From sequence record PV660457: a stretch of DNA of 52,748 nt; one strand, written 5' to 3'. Position 1 is the first letter of the stretch. Each line of letters opens with the position of its first letter. The notes beneath the pieces were generated by a model. The model worked only from the letters and a program-made list of their open reading frames with translations, ran no database searches and was not told where the DNA came from. Positions 6,029-52,748 of this stretch are shown piece after piece. The translations under genes and the position numbers were made by a program. The DNA is from Escherichia phage LF82-19.

Positions 6029-6043
6029 TAGCAAAAAGTGCTA
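6029..6043. promoter_or_regulatory. palindrome TAGCAAAAAGTGCTA within major-capsid promoter region
   Basis: lies in the spacer between TTGACC (6020-6025) and TATTAT (6042-6047); followed by hairpin GCGTGA ... TCACGC. Confidence 0.45.
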
Positions 6044-6090: not shown

Positions 6091-7044
6091 ATGACCATGA
6101 AACTTGATTCATTCGAGCAGAACGAAATTACGGTAGGCCTTCGCAAGATGGGTGTTGCGGCAAGCAAAGCGGATCGCCTGGGTATCTGGACTGTAGAGCA
6201 GATGAAGCAGACGCTTAAGCGTCAGTATGAAGCGGCTTATCCCGAAACATCAGCGCTGGCGCTCTTCCCGGTTACAACCGAAATTGCACCAACAACCCGC
6301 ATCTTCGAATACATGAAGATTGACGGCGTGACCATGGCGAAAATCATCGCGGATTATACTGACGATCTGCCTCTGGTTGATGCGACCCATAGCCTGGAAA
6401 CAGGCCGCGTACACCGCCTGGGTAACGCGTGGATGATTTCCATTGACGAAATCAAAACTGGTGCGGCGCTGGGTTCTTCCCTGTCTGACCGCAAGGCAAC
6501 ACTGGCGCGCGAAGCGCACGAAACGCTGGTGAATACTCTGGTGTTCCAGGGTTCCAAGCCTCACAAAATTCTGTCTGTGTTCGACAACCCGAACATCACC
6601 CGCGTAACTTCAGCGGCTGGCGCGTGGGCTGACCCTGAAAAGGCAAGCGACGAACTGACGGATCTGATTGAGAAAATGGAAACCCTGACCAAAGGCAAGC
6701 ACAAGATCACCGATATTGTGATCCCGCCTTCTCAGCGTAAGATCCTGGCTAAGCGCATGCCGGAAACCACGATGAGTTACTTGCAGTGGTTTGAGTCTCA
6801 GAACGGCGGTATCACAATTAGCTCAATCTCTGAGCTTGAAGATATCGACGGCATCGGTACCAAAGGCATTCTTGCCTACGAGAAAGACCCGATGAACATG
6901 AGCATCGAGATCCCGGAAGCATTCAACATGCTCCCAATGCAGCCTAAAGACCTGCATTTCAAAGTGCCTTGTACGTCCAAGACTACTGGCCTGATCGTTT
7001 ATCGTCCTCTGACGATTATCTTGCTGGTTGGCGTAGGTAAGTAA
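6091..7044 (+). CDS. major capsid protein
   Basis: 317 aa, strong RBS, flanked by terminators, position in head module. Confidence 0.6.
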   Translation: MTMKLDSFEQNEITVGLRKMGVAASKADRLGIWTVEQMKQTLKRQYEAAYPETSALALFPVTTEIAPTTRIFEYMKIDGVTMAKIIADYTDDLPLVDATHSLETGRVHRLGNAWMISIDEIKTGAALGSSLSDRKATLAREAHETLVNTLVFQGSKPHKILSVFDNPNITRVTSAAGAWADPEKASDELTDLIEKMETLTKGKHKITDIVIPPSQRKILAKRMPETTMSYLQWFESQNGGITISSISELEDIDGIGTKGILAYEKDPMNMSIEIPEAFNMLPMQPKDLHFKVPCTSKTTGLIVYRPLTIILLVGVGK

Positions 7045-9083: not shown

Positions 9084-9764
9084 ATGGCACTTCCTAACGG
9101 TTCACAGGTCTTCATTGAGCAGACACGATCCATAACCGAAGTTGAAGCAACGAGCATCACCAACTCGAAAGAGCCAGTTGCGACGGTTGCCGATATTGGC
9201 GATCTGGTAAATGGTGATTACGTGCTGGTTCTCGAATCAGTATGGGCAGGTCTGAAAAACCGCGTCCTTCGCGTCAAGTCTATTGATGCGCTGAAGGTAA
9301 CTCTTGAGGGTGACGGCAGCACGGACACGAGCAACATCAACAAGTTCCCGGCTGGCGGCGCATCAACGCTGGTGAAGATCACAAGCTGGATTGAAATCCC
9401 ATGTATCAGCGACATCGCCAAAACTGGTGGCGAACAGCAGTTTTACACCAAGCAGTGTTTAGCTGATGAGCGAGAGAAGCAAACGCCAACCTTCAAGTCT
9501 GCAACGTCGATCGGCTACACGTTCGATTTCGACTACGCAAACCCGATTACTCAACTCCTGATCGGTTACGACGAAGACGGCAAAACCCGCGCGATGCGTA
9601 TGTTCGTTCCAAAGGCGAGCTACCCGATCCGCACCTTCTCTGGCGTGCCATCGTTCGACGATGTGCCAAACACGGTGATGAACGAAGACGAAACAACCGT
9701 CCTCAACATTTCCCTTGATGGCAAGTATACGCACATGAAGGAATATGTTGCACCGACACCATAA
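9084..9764 (+). CDS. major tail protein
   Basis: 226 aa, followed by terminator then chaperone pair and tape measure (lambda V-G-T-H order). Confidence 0.6.
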   Translation: MALPNGSQVFIEQTRSITEVEATSITNSKEPVATVADIGDLVNGDYVLVLESVWAGLKNRVLRVKSIDALKVTLEGDGSTDTSNINKFPAGGASTLVKITSWIEIPCISDIAKTGGEQQFYTKQCLADEREKQTPTFKSATSIGYTFDFDYANPITQLLIGYDEDGKTRAMRMFVPKASYPIRTFSGVPSFDDVPNTVMNEDETTVLNISLDGKYTHMKEYVAPTP

Positions 9765-9768
9765 TCCG

Positions 9769-9798
9769 AAGGGGGGCTATTGCTCCCCTTTTTCTTTT
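9769..9798 (+). terminator. rho-independent terminator
   Basis: GGGGGGC-tatt-GCTCCCC then TTTTTCTTTT. Confidence 0.5.
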
Positions 9799-9840
9799 GT
9801 GATTTAATACGCGAAACACAACCAATCAGAGGATTTAATT

Positions 9841-10158
9841 ATGTCATTCAAAGTTAAACTGTCCGAGCGCCTCCCTGACTTCCCGCTTGATGTGAAATTC
9901 AACCTTCCGAACGGCACCGAGGCCGAAATTAAATTCACCGTCAAATCACTGAAGGCAAGCGAAGTTCAGGAGCTTTACACCAAGGCTGGCGAGGGCACTG
10001 GCGCTGAGTTCATTACCGCGCTGGCTACCGGGTGGAACCTGGAGGATGAATTTAACGAAGCCAACCAGAACGAGCTGGTAGACAGCTACCCGGCTGTAGT
10101 TCTTGCGCTGGTTTCCGCATACATGGAAGCGCTAGCGGGGTATCGAGCAAAAAACTAA
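9841..10158 (+). CDS. tail assembly chaperone (G-like)
   Basis: 105 aa acidic protein before tape measure; ends just after slippery heptamer. Confidence 0.6.
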   Translation: MSFKVKLSERLPDFPLDVKFNLPNGTEAEIKFTVKSLKASEVQELYTKAGEGTGAEFITALATGWNLEDEFNEANQNELVDSYPAVVLALVSAYMEALAGYRAKN

Positions 10159-10469
10159 AAAGGGCAGTCGAGCTAATGTATCGACGAGTGCCCACAGAAG
10201 CAGAGCTTGCCGATTACGGCCTGACAATGGAAGATTACCTAAATGAAGACCCTGAGATCTTAGAGTTTGATTCAGAGCTTTATGCGTCATGGGAAATGTT
10301 TTGCGCGATGCAAACACAGTGGCGATCTTCCGGCGTTGGCGCAATTGGCCTTGATTATAACGTGTTGCCTATGTTGTTCCGAATCTATAAAATAGAAGAC
10401 GAAGAACTAGCCTTAAACGACGTGCGAATCATGGAAGCGGAAGCGCTGAAACGTATGCACAAAAAATAA
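9841..10469 (+). CDS. tail assembly chaperone fusion (GT-like) via -1 frameshift at 10149-10155
   Basis: heptamer A_AAA_AAC in frame at 10149-10155; -1 frame continues into ORF 10176-10469 without a stop. Confidence 0.5.
10149..10155 (+). other. programmed -1 ribosomal frameshift slippery site
   Basis: X_XXY_YYZ = A_AAA_AAC in correct phase, 3 nt before the G-like stop codon. Confidence 0.55.
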
Positions 10470-10490
10470 GCGCCTTCGGGCGCTTTTCTT
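10470..10490 (+). terminator. rho-independent terminator
   Basis: GCGCC-ttcg-GGCGC then TTTTCTT. Confidence 0.5.
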
Positions 10491-10503
10491 ATATGGGGGT
10501 TTT

Positions 10504-13203
10504 ATGACCGAACAGTATGCAGGTTTGAGCCTTGAAGTTGACGTGTCGCAGGTTGACAAAGCTGCGGTTTCGCTTGAGAACTTCGCGAAGGCGAATGACA
10601 CGGCTGCGAAGGGTGTTGATAAGTTTATCAACCAGGAGCAGGTTGCACGCCAGAAACAAAAGGAATACGTAGAGGAGATCAAGAAGGGTAACGCCGAGTT
10701 TGCCAGGATCGAGAAGGTCATTGACCCGGCAGTGTCAAAGATCAAGCAATTGCAAACCGCTGGCGCAGATCTCGAAAAGCTATGGCAGAAAGGGCTTGTG
10801 CCTGATGAGCGCTTTTTCCAGTTGGGTGACGTTATCGACACTCAGATCGGGGCGCTGAAGAAGTCACAGCAAGCACTGACTGAGGAAGGCCGCGCAGCAC
10901 TGGAAAACGCGAAGGCGAAAGCACAGGCGCAACGTGACGGCGATCGCTTCATCAAGCAGTTGCAGGAGCAAGCCAACGCCGCAACCATGACCAAGACCGA
11001 GATCTTAGAAATGAAGGCCGCGCAGTTGGGCGTTACGGCACAGGCCGCGCCACTGATCGCAGCCATGAACAAGCAGACTAGCGCCATCAATCTTGCTGGC
11101 ATTTCGGCTGGGCAGTACAACCAGGCAATGCGAATGCTTCCGGCGCAGATCACGGACGTTGTGACTTCATTAGCATCAGGGATGCCTGTTTGGCTTGTTG
11201 CCATCCAGCAGGGCGGCCAGATCAAGGACAGCTTCGGCGGAATCGGTAACACGTTCAAAGTGTTGTTGTCTTACCTCAATCCGCTTAATGTTGGCATTGG
11301 CCTGACGGTTGGCGCGCTGGGCGCTCTCATCTTCCAGGTTGTGAAGGCTCGCGGAGAGATTACGGCAGCGCAGAAAGCCGTTGCAGAGTCATTGGGCATG
11401 ACTGGTGATTACGCCGATAAGCTGGCGTTAAACCTTCGCAACATTGCTGACGCTTCAAAGCAGACAGCAGAGGAGGCGGCTAAGGCTTTCATTTCCACGA
11501 AAGATAAAGCGGCAGAGGCACAGGCCAAACTGATTGATGTTGGTTTCAGCTACGACGAAGCGCGCCAGATGGTTGAGAAGTACAAAGGATCGTCTGATTT
11601 CACTTTCCTTAACACGGAGATTGAGCGCCATCGCCTTGAGGTGCTGGGCATTAAAGATGCGTGGAGTGATGCGGCTGAGGAAGTCAAGAACTACTACACC
11701 GGGGCGAAGGAAGGCAAGCAAAGCGTAGCGCTGGGCGGCGCGATTGACCCTATCATCAAGATCATCGAGCGTGCCAAAAATCTCCAGGTTGAGACTAACA
11801 AGGCGCGAATCGAAGGTAACAAGATCGTAAATGATACCGTCAACCTCGTTGAAAAAGAGTACCTTGCAAGCAACCGCGTTGCTGCGGCTAAGAAGGCTCT
11901 TACTGAGGCCGAGAAGTACGCGAAAACAATCGCGGCATCCGGCAACGCTGAGGCGATCAAGCAGTCGAAAGAGCTGATTGAGATTCGCAAGAAGGAGATC
12001 AAGCAAGCTGAGGAGGCTGAAGCGAAGAAGAACAAGCCTAAGAAAGTTTCACAGGGCGCAATTGTTCGATCGCCTGAAGAGCAGCTTGACAAAGAGCTTT
12101 ACACGCTCAAAGCTCAGTTGAAGGTGTTGCAGGAGCATCAAAACATCGGTGAGCGCATTTCAAGCCAGCGTAAATCATTGTGGAGCGTTGAGGCTCAGAT
12201 CTCAATCCTTCAGGAAGCGCAGAGTAAGCGCCGATTGTCGAATGAGGAAAAGGCGTTGCTGACGAGCCAGCAAAAGGTGCTGGCGATGGCTCAGGAGAAA
12301 GCGGAGTTAGGCGATCAGATTTTGGCTCAAGAGAAGTTAAACGCTCTTAATGACAAATCGCTTGCCTTTGTGATCCAAATGAACCAGTCAGCACAAGCCC
12401 TCAACGAAACACGCGCCATGGGCAACCGTGAGGCAGAGCGTGCGGCGGCGAAGGCTAAGATCACCTCTGATTACATGGCGCAGGGTGGCGGCAAGGATGA
12501 TGCAGCGTTGCAGAAGATGATCAAAGCACAGGACGACTACTACGCGGCTGAAGATGCGAAGCGTGCAGACTGGTTAGCCGGGGCGAAAAACGCCTTTGCC
12601 AACTACGGTGACGCGGCAACGGATATGTACTCCAACGTTGGGCAGATTGCCAGCAGCGCGCTTAACGGAATGTCAGATATGATGGCGGAGTTTCTCATGA
12701 CGGGCAAAGCCAACTTTGAGGACTTCGCGAAGAGCATCATCAGCCAGATCATTAAGATGATCACACAGATGGTAATCTTTAACAGCATTTCCGGCATGAT
12801 GGGCGGCGGCGGTTGGTCATTCGCTGGTGCTGGTTTCTCTGGTGGTGGCTACACTGGCGACGGCGGGAAGTATCAGCCAGCCGGAACGGTTCACCGTGGC
12901 GAGTTTGTCATGACCAAGGAAGCAACAAAGAGGATTGGCGTTGACAACCTGTATCGACTGATGCGAGGCTATGCTAACGGCGGTTATGTTGGCGGCTCAT
13001 CTTCCGGCACTGGTGCTGGCGGTAGCTTCGGCGGCGGATTCTCTCTGACGATTGGCAGCATCCCGGTTGACGTGAACAACGGAGGCGATCCGAAAGGCAT
13101 GGAGCAGGGAATTAAGGCAATCTTCCAGCAGATGATTCAGGAGTCATGCGCGCAGGGAGGAGAGGTTTACAACTTCATTCAACAGAAAACAGGAGCGGGT
13201 TAA
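10504..13203 (+). CDS. tail tape measure protein
   Basis: 899 aa, long coiled-coil Ala/Lys/Glu/Gln-rich region, C-terminal Gly-rich segment, position after chaperones. Confidence 0.85.
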   Translation: MTEQYAGLSLEVDVSQVDKAAVSLENFAKANDTAAKGVDKFINQEQVARQKQKEYVEEIKKGNAEFARIEKVIDPAVSKIKQLQTAGADLEKLWQKGLVPDERFFQLGDVIDTQIGALKKSQQALTEEGRAALENAKAKAQAQRDGDRFIKQLQEQANAATMTKTEILEMKAAQLGVTAQAAPLIAAMNKQTSAINLAGISAGQYNQAMRMLPAQITDVVTSLASGMPVWLVAIQQGGQIKDSFGGIGNTFKVLLSYLNPLNVGIGLTVGALGALIFQVVKARGEITAAQKAVAESLGMTGDYADKLALNLRNIADASKQTAEEAAKAFISTKDKAAEAQAKLIDVGFSYDEARQMVEKYKGSSDFTFLNTEIERHRLEVLGIKDAWSDAAEEVKNYYTGAKEGKQSVALGGAIDPIIKIIERAKNLQVETNKARIEGNKIVNDTVNLVEKEYLASNRVAAAKKALTEAEKYAKTIAASGNAEAIKQSKELIEIRKKEIKQAEEAEAKKNKPKKVSQGAIVRSPEEQLDKELYTLKAQLKVLQEHQNIGERISSQRKSLWSVEAQISILQEAQSKRRLSNEEKALLTSQQKVLAMAQEKAELGDQILAQEKLNALNDKSLAFVIQMNQSAQALNETRAMGNREAERAAAKAKITSDYMAQGGGKDDAALQKMIKAQDDYYAAEDAKRADWLAGAKNAFANYGDAATDMYSNVGQIASSALNGMSDMMAEFLMTGKANFEDFAKSIISQIIKMITQMVIFNSISGMMGGGGWSFAGAGFSGGGYTGDGGKYQPAGTVHRGEFVMTKEATKRIGVDNLYRLMRGYANGGYVGGSSSGTGAGGSFGGGFSLTIGSIPVDVNNGGDPKGMEQGIKAIFQQMIQESCAQGGEVYNFIQQKTGAG

Positions 13204-19283: not shown

Positions 19284-19312
19284 AAGGGAGCCTTGCGGCT
19301 CCCTCTTTTTTT
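19284..19312. terminator. bidirectional terminator between convergent J and minus-strand genes
   Basis: GGGAGCC-ttgc-GGCTCCC flanked by T-run on + and A-run (T on minus). Confidence 0.55.
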
Positions 19313-19643
19313 ACATCACTTTATTGTAGATAACCGGGCTTCGGCTGGTTTGCTGGGTAATCATGTCAAGCTTGTATTCAGCGCCGCGATTCCACTCGAA
19401 GCGTAGCGTATAAGTGTTTACGTCGCCGTAGCACATTACGTGTTTGAACTTGCGCAGGTGCTTATCAAATATCACGTTTGTGCTTTCTTCAATATTCACC
19501 GTCCGATCCTGGCAGTTTACAACCGCCACGGTTGAGCCAGTAAGAGACATTCTGGAAGCGTCAACCGGATATCCGATATTAACGTTCAAAGCCATAGCGT
19601 TTAAAGGAGCTAAGAGAGCCATAGCGAGCATGATTTTTTCCAT
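19311..19643 (-). CDS. secreted small protein (signal peptide)
   Basis: start at MEKIM (RBS GAGGAA 7 nt upstream); N-terminus MLAMALLAPLNAMA looks like a signal peptidase I substrate; track ORF to 19688 is an extension. Confidence 0.45.
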   Translation of the reverse strand: MEKIMLAMALLAPLNAMALNVNIGYPVDASRMSLTGSTVAVVNCQDRTVNIEESTNVIFDKHLRKFKHVMCYGDVNTYTLRFEWNRGAEYKLDMITQQTSRSPVIYNKVM

Positions 19644-19674
19644 TGGTGTTTCCTCGATTCGTTTATTTAAATTG

Positions 19675-19717
19675 ATTATATCCACCAATCAGGGCGCGTG
19701 CTTAGCAATTCGTGCTA
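19675..19717 (-). promoter_or_regulatory. palindrome TAGCA-N5-TGCTA plus -10 TATAAT (22-nt gap)
   Basis: on minus: TAA-TAGCACGAATTGCTA, 22 nt, TATAAT; precedes secreted protein gene. Confidence 0.5.
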
Positions 19718-20368
19718 TTAGTTCCACCCAAGGAATCGAGCCATTGGAATCTTTAGGTTTCCGCGACCGTTGAAAATATCATTAAACCCTCGCTGATTTC
19801 GTCTGATCCATGTAGTCTGCAACTCCGAGCCAGTCCAGCGCATGAGGTTGCCAGAGTAACCAGAGGCAACGCCATCCGTTGACATTTCACCCATGCAGGA
19901 CTCCCACAGAAAGAATGGGTTGTAACCAGGTGATACGCTGGCAACGTTACCCTCAAGAGGCCAATTCCCGGCAACCTCAAGGAAGCCAGTTACACGAGGC
20001 ATTGAGGCAGCGCCCAAAGCAGACCAGATCAGTTGCCCGGAACCGTCGAACACGTCAAGCACGCCAGATGGAAAGTTTGCGTTTCTGGTTGTCCTGATCA
20101 CGCGGATTGAGTTTGGTAGGAACATATCAGATCCCGGAAACCCCCACGCGCCGTTAGAAAGAAATTGCACCCAATGCAAATATCCGTCTTGCTTCCTCGT
20201 GTTTTGGTTTAGGTAAGCCAGTGAGCTTATGTTGCCAAAAGGTGTGTTTAGGTTGTAGTCACCAGTATTTAAATATGACGGGTTGAAAGATGAGTGGTAG
20301 ATCGTGTGTTTCTGATCTGAGTTAATCATCATCGCCCCGGCGTTATTGTATACCTCAAAACCAGGCAT
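19718..20368 (-). CDS. hypothetical protein (MPG-paralog, long)
   Basis: 216 aa; shares MPG(F/L) N-terminus and (F/W)DGSG(Q/N)LI motif with the upstream 99-aa ORF. Confidence 0.45.
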   Translation of the reverse strand: MPGFEVYNNAGAMMINSDQKHTIYHSSFNPSYLNTGDYNLNTPFGNISSLAYLNQNTRKQDGYLHWVQFLSNGAWGFPGSDMFLPNSIRVIRTTRNANFPSGVLDVFDGSGQLIWSALGAASMPRVTGFLEVAGNWPLEGNVASVSPGYNPFFLWESCMGEMSTDGVASGYSGNLMRWTGSELQTTWIRRNQRGFNDIFNGRGNLKIPMARFLGWN

Positions 20369-20377
20369 ATTGCCCCC

Positions 20378-20677
20378 TCAGTTAAATTTGTAAATTTCGA
20401 TATCCATCGTCACATCGTTAAACGGGTTGCTTGTTGGTAGGTAGATAACATCAACAGCATTCTCACGCGTTACGCAAGCGTAAGCACTCCCTATGTAGAT
20501 GTTTGCGTATTTGATGCAAGCAAACGAGTTGTAACCGTTTATTCCGACAACAGCAAAAGACACGATCGAAGTCGAGCGCGGGAACACGATTTGCTGACGA
20601 TGCACAAAGCGAGTGCTGAAATCTCCGAGATCCACAATCAGATTTCCCGACCCATCCCATGCTTGTAAACCAGGCAT
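20378..20677 (-). CDS. hypothetical protein (MPG-paralog, short)
   Basis: 99 aa; RBS GAGGTGG; paralog of 19718-20368. Confidence 0.45.
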   Translation of the reverse strand: MPGLQAWDGSGNLIVDLGDFSTRFVHRQQIVFPRSTSIVSFAVVGINGYNSFACIKYANIYIGSAYACVTRENAVDVIYLPTSNPFNDVTMDIEIYKFN

Positions 20678-23012: not shown

Positions 23013-23498
23013 ATGCCGCACATCATCACAGGTGAGATCAAAAAAGCCCCGTACACCAAAGACGGAAGCAACAATAACGGGCGATGGAAAATGTACATTG
23101 TCGATCTGAGTGAGCGCATGAAAGTGCGCAACCCTGACACACAGGCCGATGAAGTTGTTTACACAAACTACAAGGCAACCTTCTTTGCAAAAGAAAACGT
23201 CATGCAGTGGTACGATGAAGCGTTCCAGGTTGGCAAGGTAATCAGCGTAACGTGTGACACGCTGCAAATCACCAGCCGAGATCACAACGGCAATACGTAT
23301 CTTACGGCTGAAATGATCCGGCCTCAACTGACCTTCAGCCAGCGAGAGGCTCAGCAGCAGGGATGGGGGCAACCACAGCAGCCGCAAGGCAATCAGCAAC
23401 AAAGCCAGCACAGACCACCACAGCAGCGACCACAGCAGCGACCACAGCAGCAACAGCCACAGCAGGGAAATCAGTTTGACGATGACATTCCATTCTGA
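23013..23498 (+). CDS. ssb: single-stranded DNA-binding protein
   Basis: C-terminal DDDIPF acidic tip, the E. coli SSB-type tip, preceded by Gln/Pro-rich linker; OB-fold-sized N-terminal domain. Confidence 0.7.
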   Translation: MPHIITGEIKKAPYTKDGSNNNGRWKMYIVDLSERMKVRNPDTQADEVVYTNYKATFFAKENVMQWYDEAFQVGKVISVTCDTLQITSRDHNGNTYLTAEMIRPQLTFSQREAQQQGWGQPQQPQGNQQQSQHRPPQQRPQQRPQQQQPQQGNQFDDDIPF

Positions 23499-23509: not shown

Positions 23510-23535
23510 AAAGGAGCCTTTCGGCTCCTTTTTTA
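23510..23535. terminator. bidirectional terminator between ssb and tail fiber
   Basis: AGGAGCC-tttc-GGCTCCT then TTTTTTATTT. Confidence 0.55.
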
Positions 23536-25752
23536 TTTCAGCAATAACGACTCAAGTTTAGCAAGGCGCTCTTCCATTTCCTCCATTCTGTTACCCATGT
23601 AAACCATAGCACAGGCCATATCAGTAAGCATGACGTTTGAATCAAGAGCTAGCGTATCGTCCTTAAATCCAGTCTCGATCTGCCTGGCAACGTACTCCTC
23701 ACCATTCTCGTTGACTCCGATAACATCTTCAAAGATCGGAGCGCCAGGGACTACTTTCACATACTGACTATCAACTTTATTCAAGTCCTGAGCAATCAGA
23801 CCGAATCTCTGTGTGTCAGATCCCTTATACTTGAACATGGTTGGGAGCCACTGCATTACGCGATCATAGCTCTCCTTTCCTTCGGTGTATTTGATATCCC
23901 ACTTAAGATCCCGGTCAGACGTTGGCGCTTTCTGGAATGTATACCCCCCATCCCATCCTCCACCCTGACCCCATGAGATAATATCTGATGATGGTGCATG
24001 GAATTCAAATCCGCGATGGTACGCACCATCACCAAGCATCTTAATTACTGCGCGAGGCCATCCGTTGTTCCCGCTAGAAATCATACCAAGAGAGGTATTC
24101 ATTCGATACCCGCCAGTTGATGTGGTTGCCCCTGAGATCAATGAAGCATATCCGGCATCATTACCCGTTACATCACCAGCAAAGAACGTACTCCCCATGT
24201 AATCATTTGGCTGCGCCCAACCTCCTTGAGTTAACTTACCAAGAAACCCCCTTGGAGAAGATATGTGACCGCCGTATGAGTTTATGAATTTAAACTCCTT
24301 CCAGTCACTTCCTTGGTTGTTCACTCCGATCTTGAAGTGATCAATATCAGTGCCACTACCGCGAACCCCCCCAATCTGCCAGTAACCAGAGTACCAGTTA
24401 CCTTGAACCAGGTTAACCCAACTATTAACAGAGCCATCACCAGCAGCGTTTTGAATCAGGATGTTTTTGTTTCCGCCACTCTGAGTTGAAACAACGATCG
24501 ATTTACCCTGCTTTGCCTCTACGTTTCCGTTTGTTGCAACCAGAGCGCCGCCGCTAATCGTTCCGACGGCTGTCAGCGATGCAACTCCGGTAATGTTCCC
24601 CGCCTCATCAAACTGATAGTAGTTCCCCTTTCCTCCAGCCGTGTTTGCCGTGTGAATCGTTGTCTTTACAACGCCGCCTTGTAGTTCATTGTAAAATCTT
24701 GAGTTTGATTGCAGCGTTGCGCCGTCAGCAGAAAGCCTTTTACTCTCAATCAGCCCCCCACTAGTTGCTGAGCCAAGTGTTGTAGCCTCCACGCCTCCAA
24801 ATCTCACCGCTTGACCCGAGCCGATACCAAGATTGTTTCTTGCTCCGTCAGCAGTTGTTGATCCAGTGCCACCAGATCCGATAGGGATCGGGATTACATT
24901 TCCGTTACTATCCTGCCACTGGAAAATCCCATCATCGCCAATCGTCAGCCTTTTTGTTCTATCTGGCGTGCTAATGTAGTTACGCGTTCCAATGTGGCGC
25001 AGCCAGTCAAGATCAAGGTTCGTCCTCGCGGCTTGTACGTCAGTAAGATCAGATAGGTTATTTGCCTTCTTTAGCTGTTCGTCAGGGTTAGCCGTTGCTG
25101 CGCGGTCTGCTTCAGCCTTGGCTCGTGCTGCATCGTCACGAGCGGCGGCGGCAGATTGCCCGGCGCTGGTTTCGCTGTTTGCTGCATTCGTCTCGCTTAC
25201 CCTGGCGGCATCCTTGCTGGCTCCGGCTTGGGTTGCGGCAACTTCGGCGGCAACGCGTTGCTGATAAGCTTGCTGGTTCTGGCTTCCGGCCTCGCTTGCA
25301 CTTTGTGCGGCGGCGTTCTTGCTTGCCTCAGCTTCGTTTGCGTTAACTTCAGTACGATCAGCATCAACGCGAACGGCAGACTGAAGATCTTTCAGCTCTT
25401 GCAGGTTAAAGTTCTTGAAGAAATCCATAGCCTCCTCGATCACAGTTTCCTTGCTTTGGTAGTAGCGCAGAGTTTCAGCCACATCTTGAGCAAGGCCATC
25501 AACAGTGATTGAGTCATGCAGCAGGATTACATAGTTCGTACCATCCGGCACAACTGCATCATCCGTTTGGATCGCTCGCATTTCCGTGTCACTCACGATC
25601 GCGGAAATAGTAACCAGCGTTAGTGGTTGAGTTAAAAACACCATCGTTGCCCCAACGCGAATCAGAGACAGCTTGTCTTGCCATTTCGTATCAACGCCAG
25701 TTACAACGCCGTTAGCGGCCAATCCCGCCGTTCCTCTACGATAAATCGCCAT
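23533..25752 (-). CDS. tail fiber with C-terminal peptidase S74 intramolecular chaperone domain
   Basis: C-terminus DRDLKWDIKY ... GLIAQDL ... LAKLESLL typical of the autocleaving chaperone domain of fibers/endosialidases; Gly/Ser/Thr-rich beta-like middle; start at ATG 25752. Confidence 0.75.
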   Translation of the reverse strand: MAIYRRGTAGLAANGVVTGVDTKWQDKLSLIRVGATMVFLTQPLTLVTISAIVSDTEMRAIQTDDAVVPDGTNYVILLHDSITVDGLAQDVAETLRYYQSKETVIEEAMDFFKNFNLQELKDLQSAVRVDADRTEVNANEAEASKNAAAQSASEAGSQNQQAYQQRVAAEVAATQAGASKDAARVSETNAANSETSAGQSAAAARDDAARAKAEADRAATANPDEQLKKANNLSDLTDVQAARTNLDLDWLRHIGTRNYISTPDRTKRLTIGDDGIFQWQDSNGNVIPIPIGSGGTGSTTADGARNNLGIGSGQAVRFGGVEATTLGSATSGGLIESKRLSADGATLQSNSRFYNELQGGVVKTTIHTANTAGGKGNYYQFDEAGNITGVASLTAVGTISGGALVATNGNVEAKQGKSIVVSTQSGGNKNILIQNAAGDGSVNSWVNLVQGNWYSGYWQIGGVRGSGTDIDHFKIGVNNQGSDWKEFKFINSYGGHISSPRGFLGKLTQGGWAQPNDYMGSTFFAGDVTGNDAGYASLISGATTSTGGYRMNTSLGMISSGNNGWPRAVIKMLGDGAYHRGFEFHAPSSDIISWGQGGGWDGGYTFQKAPTSDRDLKWDIKYTEGKESYDRVMQWLPTMFKYKGSDTQRFGLIAQDLNKVDSQYVKVVPGAPIFEDVIGVNENGEEYVARQIETGFKDDTLALDSNVMLTDMACAMVYMGNRMEEMEERLAKLESLLLK

Positions 25753-25775
25753 TGTCAACACCTCTTGTTAGTAAA

Positions 25776-25790
25776 TAGCACGAATTGCTA
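25776..25790. promoter_or_regulatory. palindrome TAGCACGAATTGCTA downstream of tail-fiber -10
   Basis: lies between the extended -10 and the RBS of the tail fiber gene, opposite in orientation to early-promoter copies. Confidence 0.45.
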
Positions 25791-25796
25791 AAACGC

Positions 25797-25805
25797 ATTA
25801 TATCA
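25797..25805 (-). promoter_or_regulatory. extended -10 element (TGATATAAT) for tail fiber gene
   Basis: TGnTATAAT on minus strand about 45 nt upstream of ATG. Confidence 0.4.
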
Positions 25806-25817
25806 GGCATTCAGGCA

Positions 25818-25841
25818 ATAAAAAACCCTCCGAAGAGGGTT
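25818..25841 (-). terminator. rho-independent terminator after primase
   Basis: on minus: AACCCTC-ttcg-GAGGGTT then TTTTTTATT. Confidence 0.5.
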
Positions 25842-25851
25842 GTTGTTCGAT

Positions 25852-26787
25852 TTACTCCAGTCTGTCAATAAGAGATTGCGGATCGTATAGCCTACGCTGC
25901 ATCCCCTGGCGGAAATTGTCATTGTTCGGCAAGATTACCCTCAGATCCCGATCGTCAGCCATGCACAGGGTTTGGTAATCGGTAGACAGGCAAGCAACGC
26001 GAAGCTCACGATCTCCTTTGTATCGCCAAGCCACAATTTCAAGGTTCTCGGGCGTGAAAGTGACCCATACTTCCTGATTGGTTGCCGTCGCTACGCGATG
26101 CCCTTCGATTATGTCGCACACCAGATAAATAGAGCCAGTGCCAGCACCAAGCTTAACAACTGAACCGCGAGAATGATCGCGAGCCATAAAAGAATATTCC
26201 CCACTTTCATTAACAAACAGGATATTACACATTTCATCATCCAATCCTTCCGGTTGAGCGAGATAGCACGGATATGCATGAATAAGCGATTCTCCGCCAT
26301 TCTCGCGAGGTTTTACGCCTACAATGAATGATTCATCCAATAGGCACTCATAAACGCTTAGAGGCGTGCTGGCTCGCAATTCAGTGCGCTCCATAACAGC
26401 CATACAGGCATCGTGATCAACTTGCTTGCCAATATTGGCATCGGTTGTTCTCGCTATGCGCTTGTAAGCCTTCACGCGGTACTCTTGCGGAACCTTGCCC
26501 AAGAAGCGCCCCAGGATGTTAACCGCCTCGCTGTATGGCTCACCAGTCAGCTTCATGACCCAGCCAATGCCTTTATCGTTACCGCATGCGTTACAGATCG
26601 CCCCGCCGTCACCCTTCGACTCAAGGTTATCAGTCCAGCGGAAGCGGTCATTGCCGCCACAGTTTGGGCATGGCTGGTGTTTGCCATTGAATACGGTTGA
26701 GGGAAGAGCGCATATTGACTGCAACGCCTCGCGCCATAATCCTTTCATGTATGGCAAAACTTCCTCTTTCTGGTACATCATCGACAT
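25852..26787 (-). CDS. DNA primase (zinc ribbon + TOPRIM-like)
   Basis: N-terminal CPNCGG ... CNACG four-Cys zinc ribbon; followed by acidic-motif catalytic region. Confidence 0.6.
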   Translation of the reverse strand: MSMMYQKEEVLPYMKGLWREALQSICALPSTVFNGKHQPCPNCGGNDRFRWTDNLESKGDGGAICNACGNDKGIGWVMKLTGEPYSEAVNILGRFLGKVPQEYRVKAYKRIARTTDANIGKQVDHDACMAVMERTELRASTPLSVYECLLDESFIVGVKPRENGGESLIHAYPCYLAQPEGLDDEMCNILFVNESGEYSFMARDHSRGSVVKLGAGTGSIYLVCDIIEGHRVATATNQEVWVTFTPENLEIVAWRYKGDRELRVACLSTDYQTLCMADDRDLRVILPNNDNFRQGMQRRLYDPQSLIDRLE

Positions 26788-26842: not shown

Positions 26843-27301
26843 TCATTGATTAGCTTTTCGTGCTTTCAGTGTTTTCCAGGATGGTTGCTCCGGCTTGGTT
26901 TCTAACTCTTCCTTTCTCACCACGCGCAGCATGTGACGCTTTTTGCATCGGACTGTTAGCGGCTTGCCGTTGCCGTCGAATGACAGATCAGGGCGGCACC
27001 ACGACGCGCGGAAACCTCCGCCATTTCGTTTATATGCGTTGTGCGCCAGTTGCGCGCCTCGCGCTGAAATCATGCCGCGTTGCCGCCACTCATAAACAAC
27101 CTGAAGCGAAACGCGCAATTCTTTCGCCAGCTTTGCAGGTGAGCCGTAGAATTCAAGGATGGTATCTAATCTAGCCTTAAGCCCGGCCTTTACTTCGTCT
27201 CGTAAAACATAGTAACCTACTGGACGTTTTCGGCGCTTAGCGTCACTTCCGCGCTTCGTTCCATTGTTCCCATTAAGCGTGCGTTTATCTACGGTTTCCA
27301 T
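26843..27301 (-). CDS. HTH DNA-binding protein (Cro/YdaS-like, putative regulator)
   Basis: AKLAKELRVSLQVVYEWRQRG HTH-like segment; basic N- and C-termini; divergent from helicase promoter. Confidence 0.5.
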   Translation of the reverse strand: METVDKRTLNGNNGTKRGSDAKRRKRPVGYYVLRDEVKAGLKARLDTILEFYGSPAKLAKELRVSLQVVYEWRQRGMISARGAQLAHNAYKRNGGGFRASWCRPDLSFDGNGKPLTVRCKKRHMLRVVRKEELETKPEQPSWKTLKARKANQ

Positions 27302-27314
27302 AATTATTCCTCAA

Positions 27315-27356
27315 TAGCATTTTTTGTTAAAACTGGATTGTTGAGGCGTGTATTAT
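27315..27356 (+). promoter_or_regulatory. palindrome TAGCA-N5-TGTTA plus -10 TATTAT
   Basis: TAGCATTTTTTGTTA, 21 nt, TATTAT; upstream of helicase operon. Confidence 0.5.
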
Positions 27357-37132: not shown

Positions 37133-37175
37133 ATAATAACAAAACCCGCCGAAGCGGGTTTAACAAAAAGTGCTA
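37133..37175 (-). promoter_or_regulatory. palindrome plus terminator-like hairpin plus -10 TATTAT
   Basis: on minus: TAGCACTTTTTGTTA-AACCCGCTTCGGCGGGTTTTG-TTATTAT; same 40-nt element as 48965-49007. Confidence 0.5.
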
Positions 37176-37865
37176 TTTGTAACGGTTGTACTGGAAGACG
37201 GCGCGAGCGAATCCGCGCGGAGTTAGGGAGCGGAGTTGCTTAGTCTTCGCAGACTTTCCGCCGAGGAACTTCCAGCCCCAAAAGAAATGCAAGCCTTCCT
37301 CTTTTGGTAATGGTGCCTTCTCTGGCTCGCGGAAACCGTTGCCATGCCAGATGCAAGTTTTTTTCGTGTAGCCGTCTCGCAGTGGCATTTTGGGGTGCCA
37401 GGAGCCTTCACGCGCATCGACGTATTGCCCGAAGTCACGAGGATGGAAATAGAATTTAGGCTTGCCCAGGTTTTCCGGCTTTGACATTGCCCCTACCGGG
37501 TTTTCAATCATCCACGGGATCTGGTAGCGTTCGCCAATCTCAATGACAACCTTTGCACACTCAAGCGCATATTTCATTTCGGCGTCGTCTCTCTCGTGCT
37601 GCGCGCCAGATTGGGCAAACAGAGTGCAATCCGGGAAGCCAAAAACGATATCAGGCTTGGGCAACCCCAGGATCTCAGCCTTTGTGATGAAATCCTTATC
37701 AATCCACGTATTCACATATCGGATATTTGGGTGATTCATCTTCACGGCGTACTCGCCATGATTGCCGGAGTCAGCGTTGAAGCATATCACCTGACAACCA
37801 ACCTCAGCCCAAGGCAATCCCATAATGCCGGAGCCGTCAAACAGCGACCATACAACACGCTTCAT
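37173..37865 (-). CDS. C5-cytosine methyltransferase-like protein (short)
   Basis: motif I LFDGSG, motif IV FPDCTLF (PC), motif VI ENP (ENV-like); only 230 aa, no obvious target-recognition domain. Confidence 0.55.
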   Translation of the reverse strand: MKRVVWSLFDGSGIMGLPWAEVGCQVICFNADSGNHGEYAVKMNHPNIRYVNTWIDKDFITKAEILGLPKPDIVFGFPDCTLFAQSGAQHERDDAEMKYALECAKVVIEIGERYQIPWMIENPVGAMSKPENLGKPKFYFHPRDFGQYVDAREGSWHPKMPLRDGYTKKTCIWHGNGFREPEKAPLPKEEGLHFFWGWKFLGGKSAKTKQLRSLTPRGFARAVFQYNRYK

Positions 37866-48964: not shown

Positions 48965-49007
48965 TAGCACTTTTTGTTAAACCCGCTTCGGCGGGTTTTG
49001 TTATTCT
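48965..49007 (+). promoter_or_regulatory. palindrome plus terminator-like hairpin plus -10 TATTCT
   Basis: TAGCACTTTTTGTTA-AACCCGCTTCGGCGGGTTTTG-TTATTCT; inverted duplicate of 37133-37175. Confidence 0.5.
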
Positions 49008-52697: not shown

Positions 52698-52708
52698 CGT
52701 CTGCAATC

Positions 52709-52717
52709 TGGTATAAT
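52709..52717 (+). promoter_or_regulatory. extended -10 promoter (TGgTATAAT) reading toward window end and terS
   Basis: followed by RBS AGGAGG at 52734-52739, 9 nt before the window end, which abuts the ATG at position 1. Confidence 0.45.
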
Positions 52718-52748
52718 CGAACCTCATCAACAAAGGAGGGAAGGAACA

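Follow-up and report, generated by a model that had tools for sequence, protein, structure and literature searches.

Why would LF82-19 encode a tail fibre between its recombination and replication genes, on the strand opposite to its tail genes, and what would such a fibre do for the phage? LF82-19 is one of five virulent phages of Escherichia coli LF82, about 53 kb in size, that match a Drexlerviridae phage best among reference genomes (Steczynska et al. 2025, Table 1; PMC12509680). The window referred to below is the whole stretch of 52,748 nucleotides that was analysed (PV660457). Outside the fibre gene, the four sister isolates are practically identical to it (100.0% over 23 kb and 24.9 kb), and the closest reference phage, vB_EcoS_NBD2, matches at about 75% over 79% of the left arm. 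The closest relative is a metagenomic contig, L085, which has the same synteny and flanks that are about 98% identical to the window. LF82-19 is a T1-like siphophage related to the Drexlerviridae.

Reading from the ATG at 25752, which has the sequence AAGAGG upstream at 25766..25761, the gene encodes 739 amino acids; a program-made list of open reading frames starts it three codons earlier, at the GTG at 25761, giving 742. The annotation of the sister genomes calls it "tail fiber protein," as do all the top PHROG families, and 20 of the 22 PHROG matches fall in the tail category, the other two having no assigned function. Antisense open reading frames in the Ala-rich region (24992..25512, plus strand) were dismissed as by-products of GCN-rich codons. 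The neighbours are a single-stranded DNA-binding protein (SSB) gene (23013..23498, plus strand) and a primase gene (25852..26787, minus strand), and the stop codon lies 4,255 nt from that of the J-like gene (19278), the J homologue being 1,183 aa long. An earlier note on this DNA had described a 739-aa tail fibre on the minus strand between recombination and replication modules, some 4 kb from the J-like gene, and in these respects it was accurate. It had also called the gene relocated, a view that must be dropped, since the position of the fibre gene is conserved across T1-like phages.

The evidence for this conservation comes from several sides. In T1 and mar001J1, the regulator, primase, and fibre genes are followed by SSB, Erf, and exonuclease genes in convergent orientation, and J comes after these; the fibre gene has the same position and orientation in T1, mar001J1, NBD2, and two close metagenomic relatives. 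The regulator and primase genes precede the fibre gene in 60 of the 63 IMG/VR loci with full flanks; SSB and Erf are convergent downstream of it in 36 of these (the T1 type, as in LF82-19) and co-oriented upstream of it in 27 (the Webervirus type). Consistent with this, the recombination and primase/helicase genes that flank the Drexlerviridae fibre locus have been described as fully syntenic, with a fibre gene conserved at its 5' end only (Maffei 2021, S1C Fig; PMC8594841), and the LF82-19 gene lies just there, between primase/regulator and Erf/SSB genes. The opposite strand, the distance of 4.2 kb from J, and the gene's own terminators and promoter could suggest a whole-gene cassette that was recently relocated or horizontally acquired in LF82-19 in particular. 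We regard this as very improbable, given the shared position in relatives, the published synteny, a GC content of 0.49-0.52 that resembles that of the flanks and shows no composition anomaly, and exchange breakpoints that lie inside the gene. Thus, by gene order, placement beside primase and recombination genes and away from the tail module is a conserved arrangement of T1-like phages.

The gene and its product are divided as follows.

23533..25752, minus strand: putative lateral tail fibre gene, 739 codons plus a stop codon at 23533-23535.
25378..25752, minus strand: anchor domain at the N terminus, aa 1-125, through which Drexlerviridae fibres attach to the virion.
25084..25368, minus strand: shaft of heptad repeats rich in Ala, Ser, and Gln, aa ~129-223, which presumably forms a trimeric alpha-helical coiled coil.
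25247..25251, minus strand: deletion junction with the microhomology GCCGC, where 231 nt (77 aa, 11 heptads) are missing in frame compared with LF82-11, -12, and -40.
24493..25083, minus strand: beta-rich proximal section of the distal half, aa 224-420, with 86-99% nucleotide identity to L085 in 150-nt windows.
23920..24492, minus strand: variable distal tip, aa 421-611, presumed glycan-binding domain.
23536..23919, minus strand: Peptidase_S74 intramolecular chaperone domain, aa 612-739, with PF13884 above cut-off.
23917-23919 and 23902-23904, minus strand: codons of Ser612 and Lys617, with predicted cleavage between Thr611 and Ser612.

The protein matches 1,153 phage records, mostly through the anchor segment, which is typically about 55-67% identical to the N termini of fibres and depolymerases in other phage records. 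The T1 fibre is 61% identical over aa 1-123, the anchor domain finds 142 related stretches in IMG/VR, and the protein thus carries the conserved N-terminal anchor of Drexlerviridae lateral tail fibres. The shaft that follows has strong periodicity at 7 and 3.5 residues, as calculated on the 816-aa sister form, and the fibre profile aligns with the shaft of T7 gp17 (7boz, E 6e-8) and with the helical-bundle segment of the depolymerase Depo32, suggesting that the shaft is a trimeric coiled coil. The distal half (aa 224-611) is beta-rich in a predicted model. Over aa ~300-737, the protein is 40-45% identical to the L-shaped fibres of several T5-like phages, and its distal half is 44-55% identical to some Drexlerviridae fibres. 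Moreover, the full-protein profile matches DT57C LtfA (8HQZ_d, E 8e-16), and the fold matches in BFVD are all S74 or L-shaped tail fibres. The homologous distal receptor-binding region and the chaperone are therefore those of a T5-type L-shaped fibre, but the N terminus and the genomic context are of the Drexlerviridae type, in place of a T5-type attachment region in a Demerecviridae genome. The fibre is accordingly best described, in terms of its sequence, as one that works like a T5-type fibre yet lies outside that fibre lineage over its full length.

Our preferred reading, with a probability of roughly 0.87, is that the gene encodes a lateral (side) tail fibre of a T1-like siphophage with a self-cleaving S74 chaperone. 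Depo32 of Klebsiella phage GH-K3 (PDB 7VYV/7VZ3) shares the genomic locus and the anchor plus helical bundle, its PDB chains matching aa 1-177 (E 3e-46); the Depo32 anchor and bundle, to residue 185, were not resolved in the map (PMC10581125). Beyond the bundle, the two proteins differ entirely: Depo32 continues with a catalytic beta-helix and a CBM, and it lacks an S74 domain. This shared anchor, together with the depolymerases often found at this locus in relatives and a Pertactin-like (beta-helix) match at aa 392-452 that stays below threshold (20.5 bits; cut-off 22), would fit an enzymatic tailspike, that is, a capsule or O-antigen depolymerase instead of a purely binding fibre. Such an enzyme seems unlikely here, as no hydrolase or lyase family, and hence no catalytic domain, was matched in the Pfam search, the distal half is homologous to T5-like L-shaped fibres and DT57C LtfA and not to spikes, and a distal part of about 385 aa leaves little room for both a catalytic beta-helix and a binding module.

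A lateral fibre has its nearest counterparts in the Drexlerviridae fibres of T1, mar001J1 ("stf"), and FritzSarasin (Bas04), which have the same anchor and the same locus beside primase and SSB/Erf genes. Overall identity to mar001J1 "stf" is 54.7%, and FritzSarasin is 54% identical over 85% of the distal half. What sets LF82-19 apart from them is its tip (aa ~421-611), a different allele with at most about 55% identity to any cultured phage. T5 pb1 and DT57C LtfA (8HQZ chain d) share with it the coiled-coil shaft, the beta-rich distal receptor-binding part, and the C-terminal S74 chaperone; in contrast to these T5-like fibres, the LF82-19 fibre is about half as long and has the attachment domain of the T1 family, and the "bullet" domain of T5 pb1 is undetectable in it by sequence.

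The chaperone assignment is well supported. PF13884 (Peptidase_S74) matches aa 612-665 over model positions 1-57 of 58, scoring 31.1 bits where the gathering threshold is 22 (E 3e-7), so the C-terminal S74 domain claimed by the earlier note withstood the profile search that the note itself had named as a refutation test. The domain begins T611-S612-D-R-D-L-K617, a Ser-x4-Lys motif preceded by Thr, in which S612, D613, R614, and K617 are invariant across 44 homologues, all of which have PF13884. The spacing is that of T5 pb1, where cleavage occurs at Thr1263|Ser1264 with Lys1269 and is blocked by the substitution S1264A (PMC4690869). By analogy, the LF82-19 fibre probably cleaves itself at Thr611|Ser612, which would give a mature chain of 64.1 kDa and release a domain of 14.8 kDa. 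The chaperone-domain profile matches that of DT57C LtfA (8HQZ_d, E 2.7e-6); a sequence search of the PDB found DT57C LtfA and, weakly, S16 gp37, and did not retrieve T5 pb1 or K1F endosialidase. The fold of this domain family, which the LF82-19 domain may share, comprises a mixed alpha/beta unit, a long beta-hairpin "tentacle," and a C-terminal trimeric coiled-coil helix. K1F endosialidase, the founder of PF13884, belongs to the same Pfam family with the same Ser-Lys dyad logic, a common fold and mechanism being set out in PMC4690869; the passenger in LF82-19 is a fibre tip and not a sialidase.

Taken together, these features suggest how the fibre would be made and used. Three chains would assemble into one fibre, with trimer folding nucleated by the C-terminal 128 aa. 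The S74 domain would then use Ser612 and Lys617 as a dyad to cut itself off at the predicted site, and the tip of the mature chain, now of 64 kDa, would be unmasked. The conserved N-terminal domain (aa 1-125) would dock the fibre on the tail, the coiled-coil shaft (aa ~129-223) would serve as a spacer, and the variable tip (aa ~421-611) would bind a host surface glycan reversibly, most likely the O-antigen, before the J-associated tip protein engages the outer-membrane receptor. The L-shaped fibres of T5 bind O-antigen, and adsorption through T5-type fibres is reversible and dispensable (PMC4690869). In the Drexlerviridae, O-antigen binding has been proposed for the fibres, although neither this binding nor the lateral-fibre role has been directly demonstrated for the family (Maffei 2021, PMC8594841); at this locus in Webervirus, O-antigen binding has been shown for nonenzymatic proteins (PMC13463945).

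The earlier note had seen in the gene a receptor-binding protein, and the product is probably not the terminal one. As the most variable structural gene, with a tip exchanged between close relatives, it might be thought to decide host range alone and to trigger DNA ejection. There is very little chance of this, as terminal specificity in the family maps to the small genes that come right after the J homologue (PMC8594841), such small genes are present in that position in LF82-19 (19311..20677), and the homologous T5-type fibres mediate reversible, dispensable adsorption (PMC4690869).

Relative to L085, aa 1-400 are mostly 95-99% identical at the nucleotide level, with one 150-nt window at 86%. 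Identity then falls to 54-68% over aa 450-600, is 62-80% in the chaperone domain, and is above 90% beyond aa ~700; at the protein level, the variable tip is 39-68% identical. Another relative, P0006, has the opposite pattern, with a conserved C-terminal 200 aa and a divergent middle. These two patterns suggest exchange in sub-gene modules, namely, the tip, partly with its chaperone, and the breakpoints lie inside the fibre gene, away from its borders. A comparison with relatives to detect mosaic breakpoints had been proposed in advance, and the drop in identity over the tip and part of the chaperone domain is what it yielded. Modular host-range exchange, as suggested before, is thus supported by sequence in the form of distal-tip exchange within the gene, but it is not new: such exchange has already been described for Drexlerviridae, and in Webervirus a gene swap at this locus switches receptor use (PMC13463945).

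A second kind of variation concerns the length of the shaft. The fibre has 816 aa in LF82-11, -12, and -40, 788 aa in LF82-10, and 739 aa in LF82-19, and since the fibres of close relatives have 813-819 aa, the long form is ancestral. LF82-19 has lost 231 nt between two imperfect AAE(A/V)AAT repeats with 5 bp in common, and LF82-10 lacks 84 nt (28 aa, 4 heptads) at another site with 7 bp of microhomology. Both losses comprise whole heptads (11 and 4) and would make a coiled coil shorter by about 11.5 nm in LF82-19 and 4.2 nm in LF82-10, and the shaft indels explain exactly the genome-size differences in the published table (Steczynska et al. 2025, PMC12509680). An assembly artefact is unlikely, because the repeats share only 5-7 bp and all three lengths recur in independent Logan assemblies, made by an independent pipeline. 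The heptad shaft may be a hot spot for register-preserving deletions that tune the reach of the fibre.

The gene also appears to be transcribed separately, as suggested by the following signals around it.

25824..25841, minus strand: intrinsic terminator closing the regulator-primase transcript, a 7-bp stem followed by TTTTTAT, just upstream of the putative fibre promoter.
25797..25805, minus strand: extended -10 promoter element TGATATAAT, without a -35 match.
25776..25790, minus strand: reversed copy of the palindrome, TAGCAATTCGTGCTA, 6 nt after the -10 and near +1 of the putative fibre promoter.
25761..25766, minus strand: ribosome-binding site AAGAGG, 8 nt before the ATG.
23510..23531, both strands: bidirectional intrinsic terminator common to the convergent SSB (plus strand) and fibre (minus strand) genes, with a 9-bp stem, AAAGGAGCC..GGCTCCTTT, and T-runs on both strands.

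A scanner for paired -35/-10 elements did not pick up the fibre promoter. The exact sequence TGnTATAAT occurs only six times in the window, counting both strands, and 67 of 78 related loci have TGnTAnnnT ahead of the ATG of the fibre gene. In 29-30 of the 78, including those of T1, NBD2, and mar001J1, a palindrome follows the extended -10, always reversed and 6, 7, or 12 nt later, and T1 and mar001J1 share the entire arrangement of terminator, extended -10, and palindrome. This conservation makes it plausible that the fibre gene is a separate transcription unit, in which the signals upstream, the gene, and the bidirectional terminator would act together and the extended -10 element would be an active promoter. 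The fibre gene's own extended -10 promoter, with a copy of the palindrome immediately downstream, had been pointed out before; both elements were found (TGATATAAT, read from 25805 to 25797, with TAGCAATTCGTGCTA 6 nt later).

The palindrome is not confined to this gene. There are 11 instances of the pattern TAGCA-N5-TGCTA, where 0.05 would be expected, and as an oriented motif, TAGCAC-N3-TTG(C/T)TA, mostly followed by AAAC, it has 24 copies when up to one mismatch in the arms is allowed. Of these, 22 lie 21-23 nt (22 nt in 19 of the 22) upstream of a -10-like hexamer before early or replication genes, which places the motif centre near -42. The same spacing rules out TTGCTA as a sigma-70 -35 hexamer. 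The other two copies, at the fibre gene and at the major-head gene (6029; phrog_264), have the reverse orientation and come shortly after a -10. The helicase promoter (27315) has a forward copy that, seen from the divergent gene for a 152-aa Cro/HTH-like regulator (26843..27301), is a reversed copy in that gene's leader. As RNA, the palindrome by itself reaches only -3 kcal/mol, and the minimum-energy fold of the fibre leader does not contain it; given this weak folding, a stabilizing hairpin at the 5' end of the mRNA is less likely than a site bound by a protein at the DNA level. We favour a protein site used in two geometries, near -42 and, at the fibre and major-head promoters, reversed at about +1. 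The larger proposal is that the palindrome is the operator of an early/late switch of the T1 family, in which one regulator would activate the promoters with the motif near -42, in class-II activator geometry, and gate the fibre and major-head promoters. This proposal, taken together with a heptad shaft that undergoes register-preserving deletions to tune reach, is at this point speculative and rather doubtful. A literature search found no paper on this motif or on T1-type transcriptional control, and the promoter motif is for this reason the part that could open something new.

By sequence, the fibre gene of LF82-19 is a new allele of the well-described hypervariable fibre locus of Drexlerviridae, with a T5-type tip and an S74 chaperone. 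Its domain make-up, position, modular exchange, and separate regulation are family traits that are already in the literature. The three natural shaft lengths (816, 788, and 739 aa) in an isogenic background are a ready-made test of the effect of fibre length on adsorption. The practical value lies in phage-therapy work on the Crohn's-associated strain LF82, for which the tip (aa ~421-611) and its chaperone would be the cassette to swap or mutate in host-range engineering.

The fibre locus of T1-like phages, mapped across related IMG/VR loci (L005-L084), has two layouts. In the T1 type, found in 36 loci, SSB/Erf are convergent with the fibre gene; in the Klebsiella Webervirus type, found in 27, SSB/Erf are co-oriented with it and lie between primase and fibre. 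Using the C-terminal domain of the LF82-19 fibre, we could detect the chaperone domain in only 12 of the 80 IMG/VR fibres. In T1 isolate 22 (MN153797; L003 9001-11172), the annotation splits the fibre gene into two coding sequences of 456 and 1,617 nt, suggesting either a sequencing error or a frameshift or stop in this isolate.

The five 53-kb LF82 phages, which are isogenic, differ in length only by two independent in-frame deletions in the fibre heptad shaft, of 77 aa and 28 aa, both multiples of 7 residues and both located at 5-7 bp microhomologies. The positions concerned are:

25247-25251, LF82-19 window
9134-11584, sister-isolate locus L001
1634-4000, sister-isolate locus L002

Near the fibre gene, SSB carries at its 3' end (23406-23465) tandem 12-15-nt repeats encoding a Gln/Pro-rich tail, and these repeats could be another slippage site. 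Directly downstream of J, on the opposite strand, three small function-unassigned genes (19311-20677, minus strand) occupy the candidate terminal-receptor locus of the family. The last of them (110 aa) encodes a signal peptide (MEKIMLAMALLAPLNAMA) and is served by a separate motif promoter at 19703.

This oriented 15-bp motif, with the consensus TAGCAC-N3-TTG(C/T)TA(AAAC) in the window, stands in forward orientation in front of 22 early or replication genes, and a literature search for it found no paper.

Copies of the oriented motif
Forward: 19703, 22233, 27315, 29877, 30870, 32881, 36668, 37161, 38845, 39720, 40007, 41427, 42799, 43597, 44266, 45175, 45613, 46700, 47483, 48965, 49742, 50756
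Reverse only: 6029, 25776

A -10-like hexamer, with a TGn extension in about half of the cases, lies 21-23 nt 3' of the forward motif, the spacing being 22 nt in 19 of the 22 copies. With its centre near -42 and at this distance from the hexamer, the motif was rejected as a -35 element. GC hairpins are frequent in the spacers, and two motif promoters share an identical complete terminator hairpin (cccgcttcggcgggtttt) within the 22-nt spacer, so that the terminator of the upstream gene overlaps the next promoter:

37161-37200, motif promoter with terminator hairpin in spacer
48965-49005, motif promoter with the same hairpin in spacer

Ahead of the terminase operon (52700-52748 / 1) lie a terminator and an extended -10 (TGGTATAAT, 52709) that is not accompanied by the motif; this putative promoter represents a third class.

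At the major head gene (6091..7044), the motif (6029-6043) is reversed and directly 3' of a -10, as at the fibre gene. The leader of a Cro/HTH-like regulator gene (26843..27301) also contains a reversed motif (27315-27329), which doubles as the forward motif of the putative promoter of the divergent helicase gene. This shared placement suggests that the regulator gene may be autoregulated.
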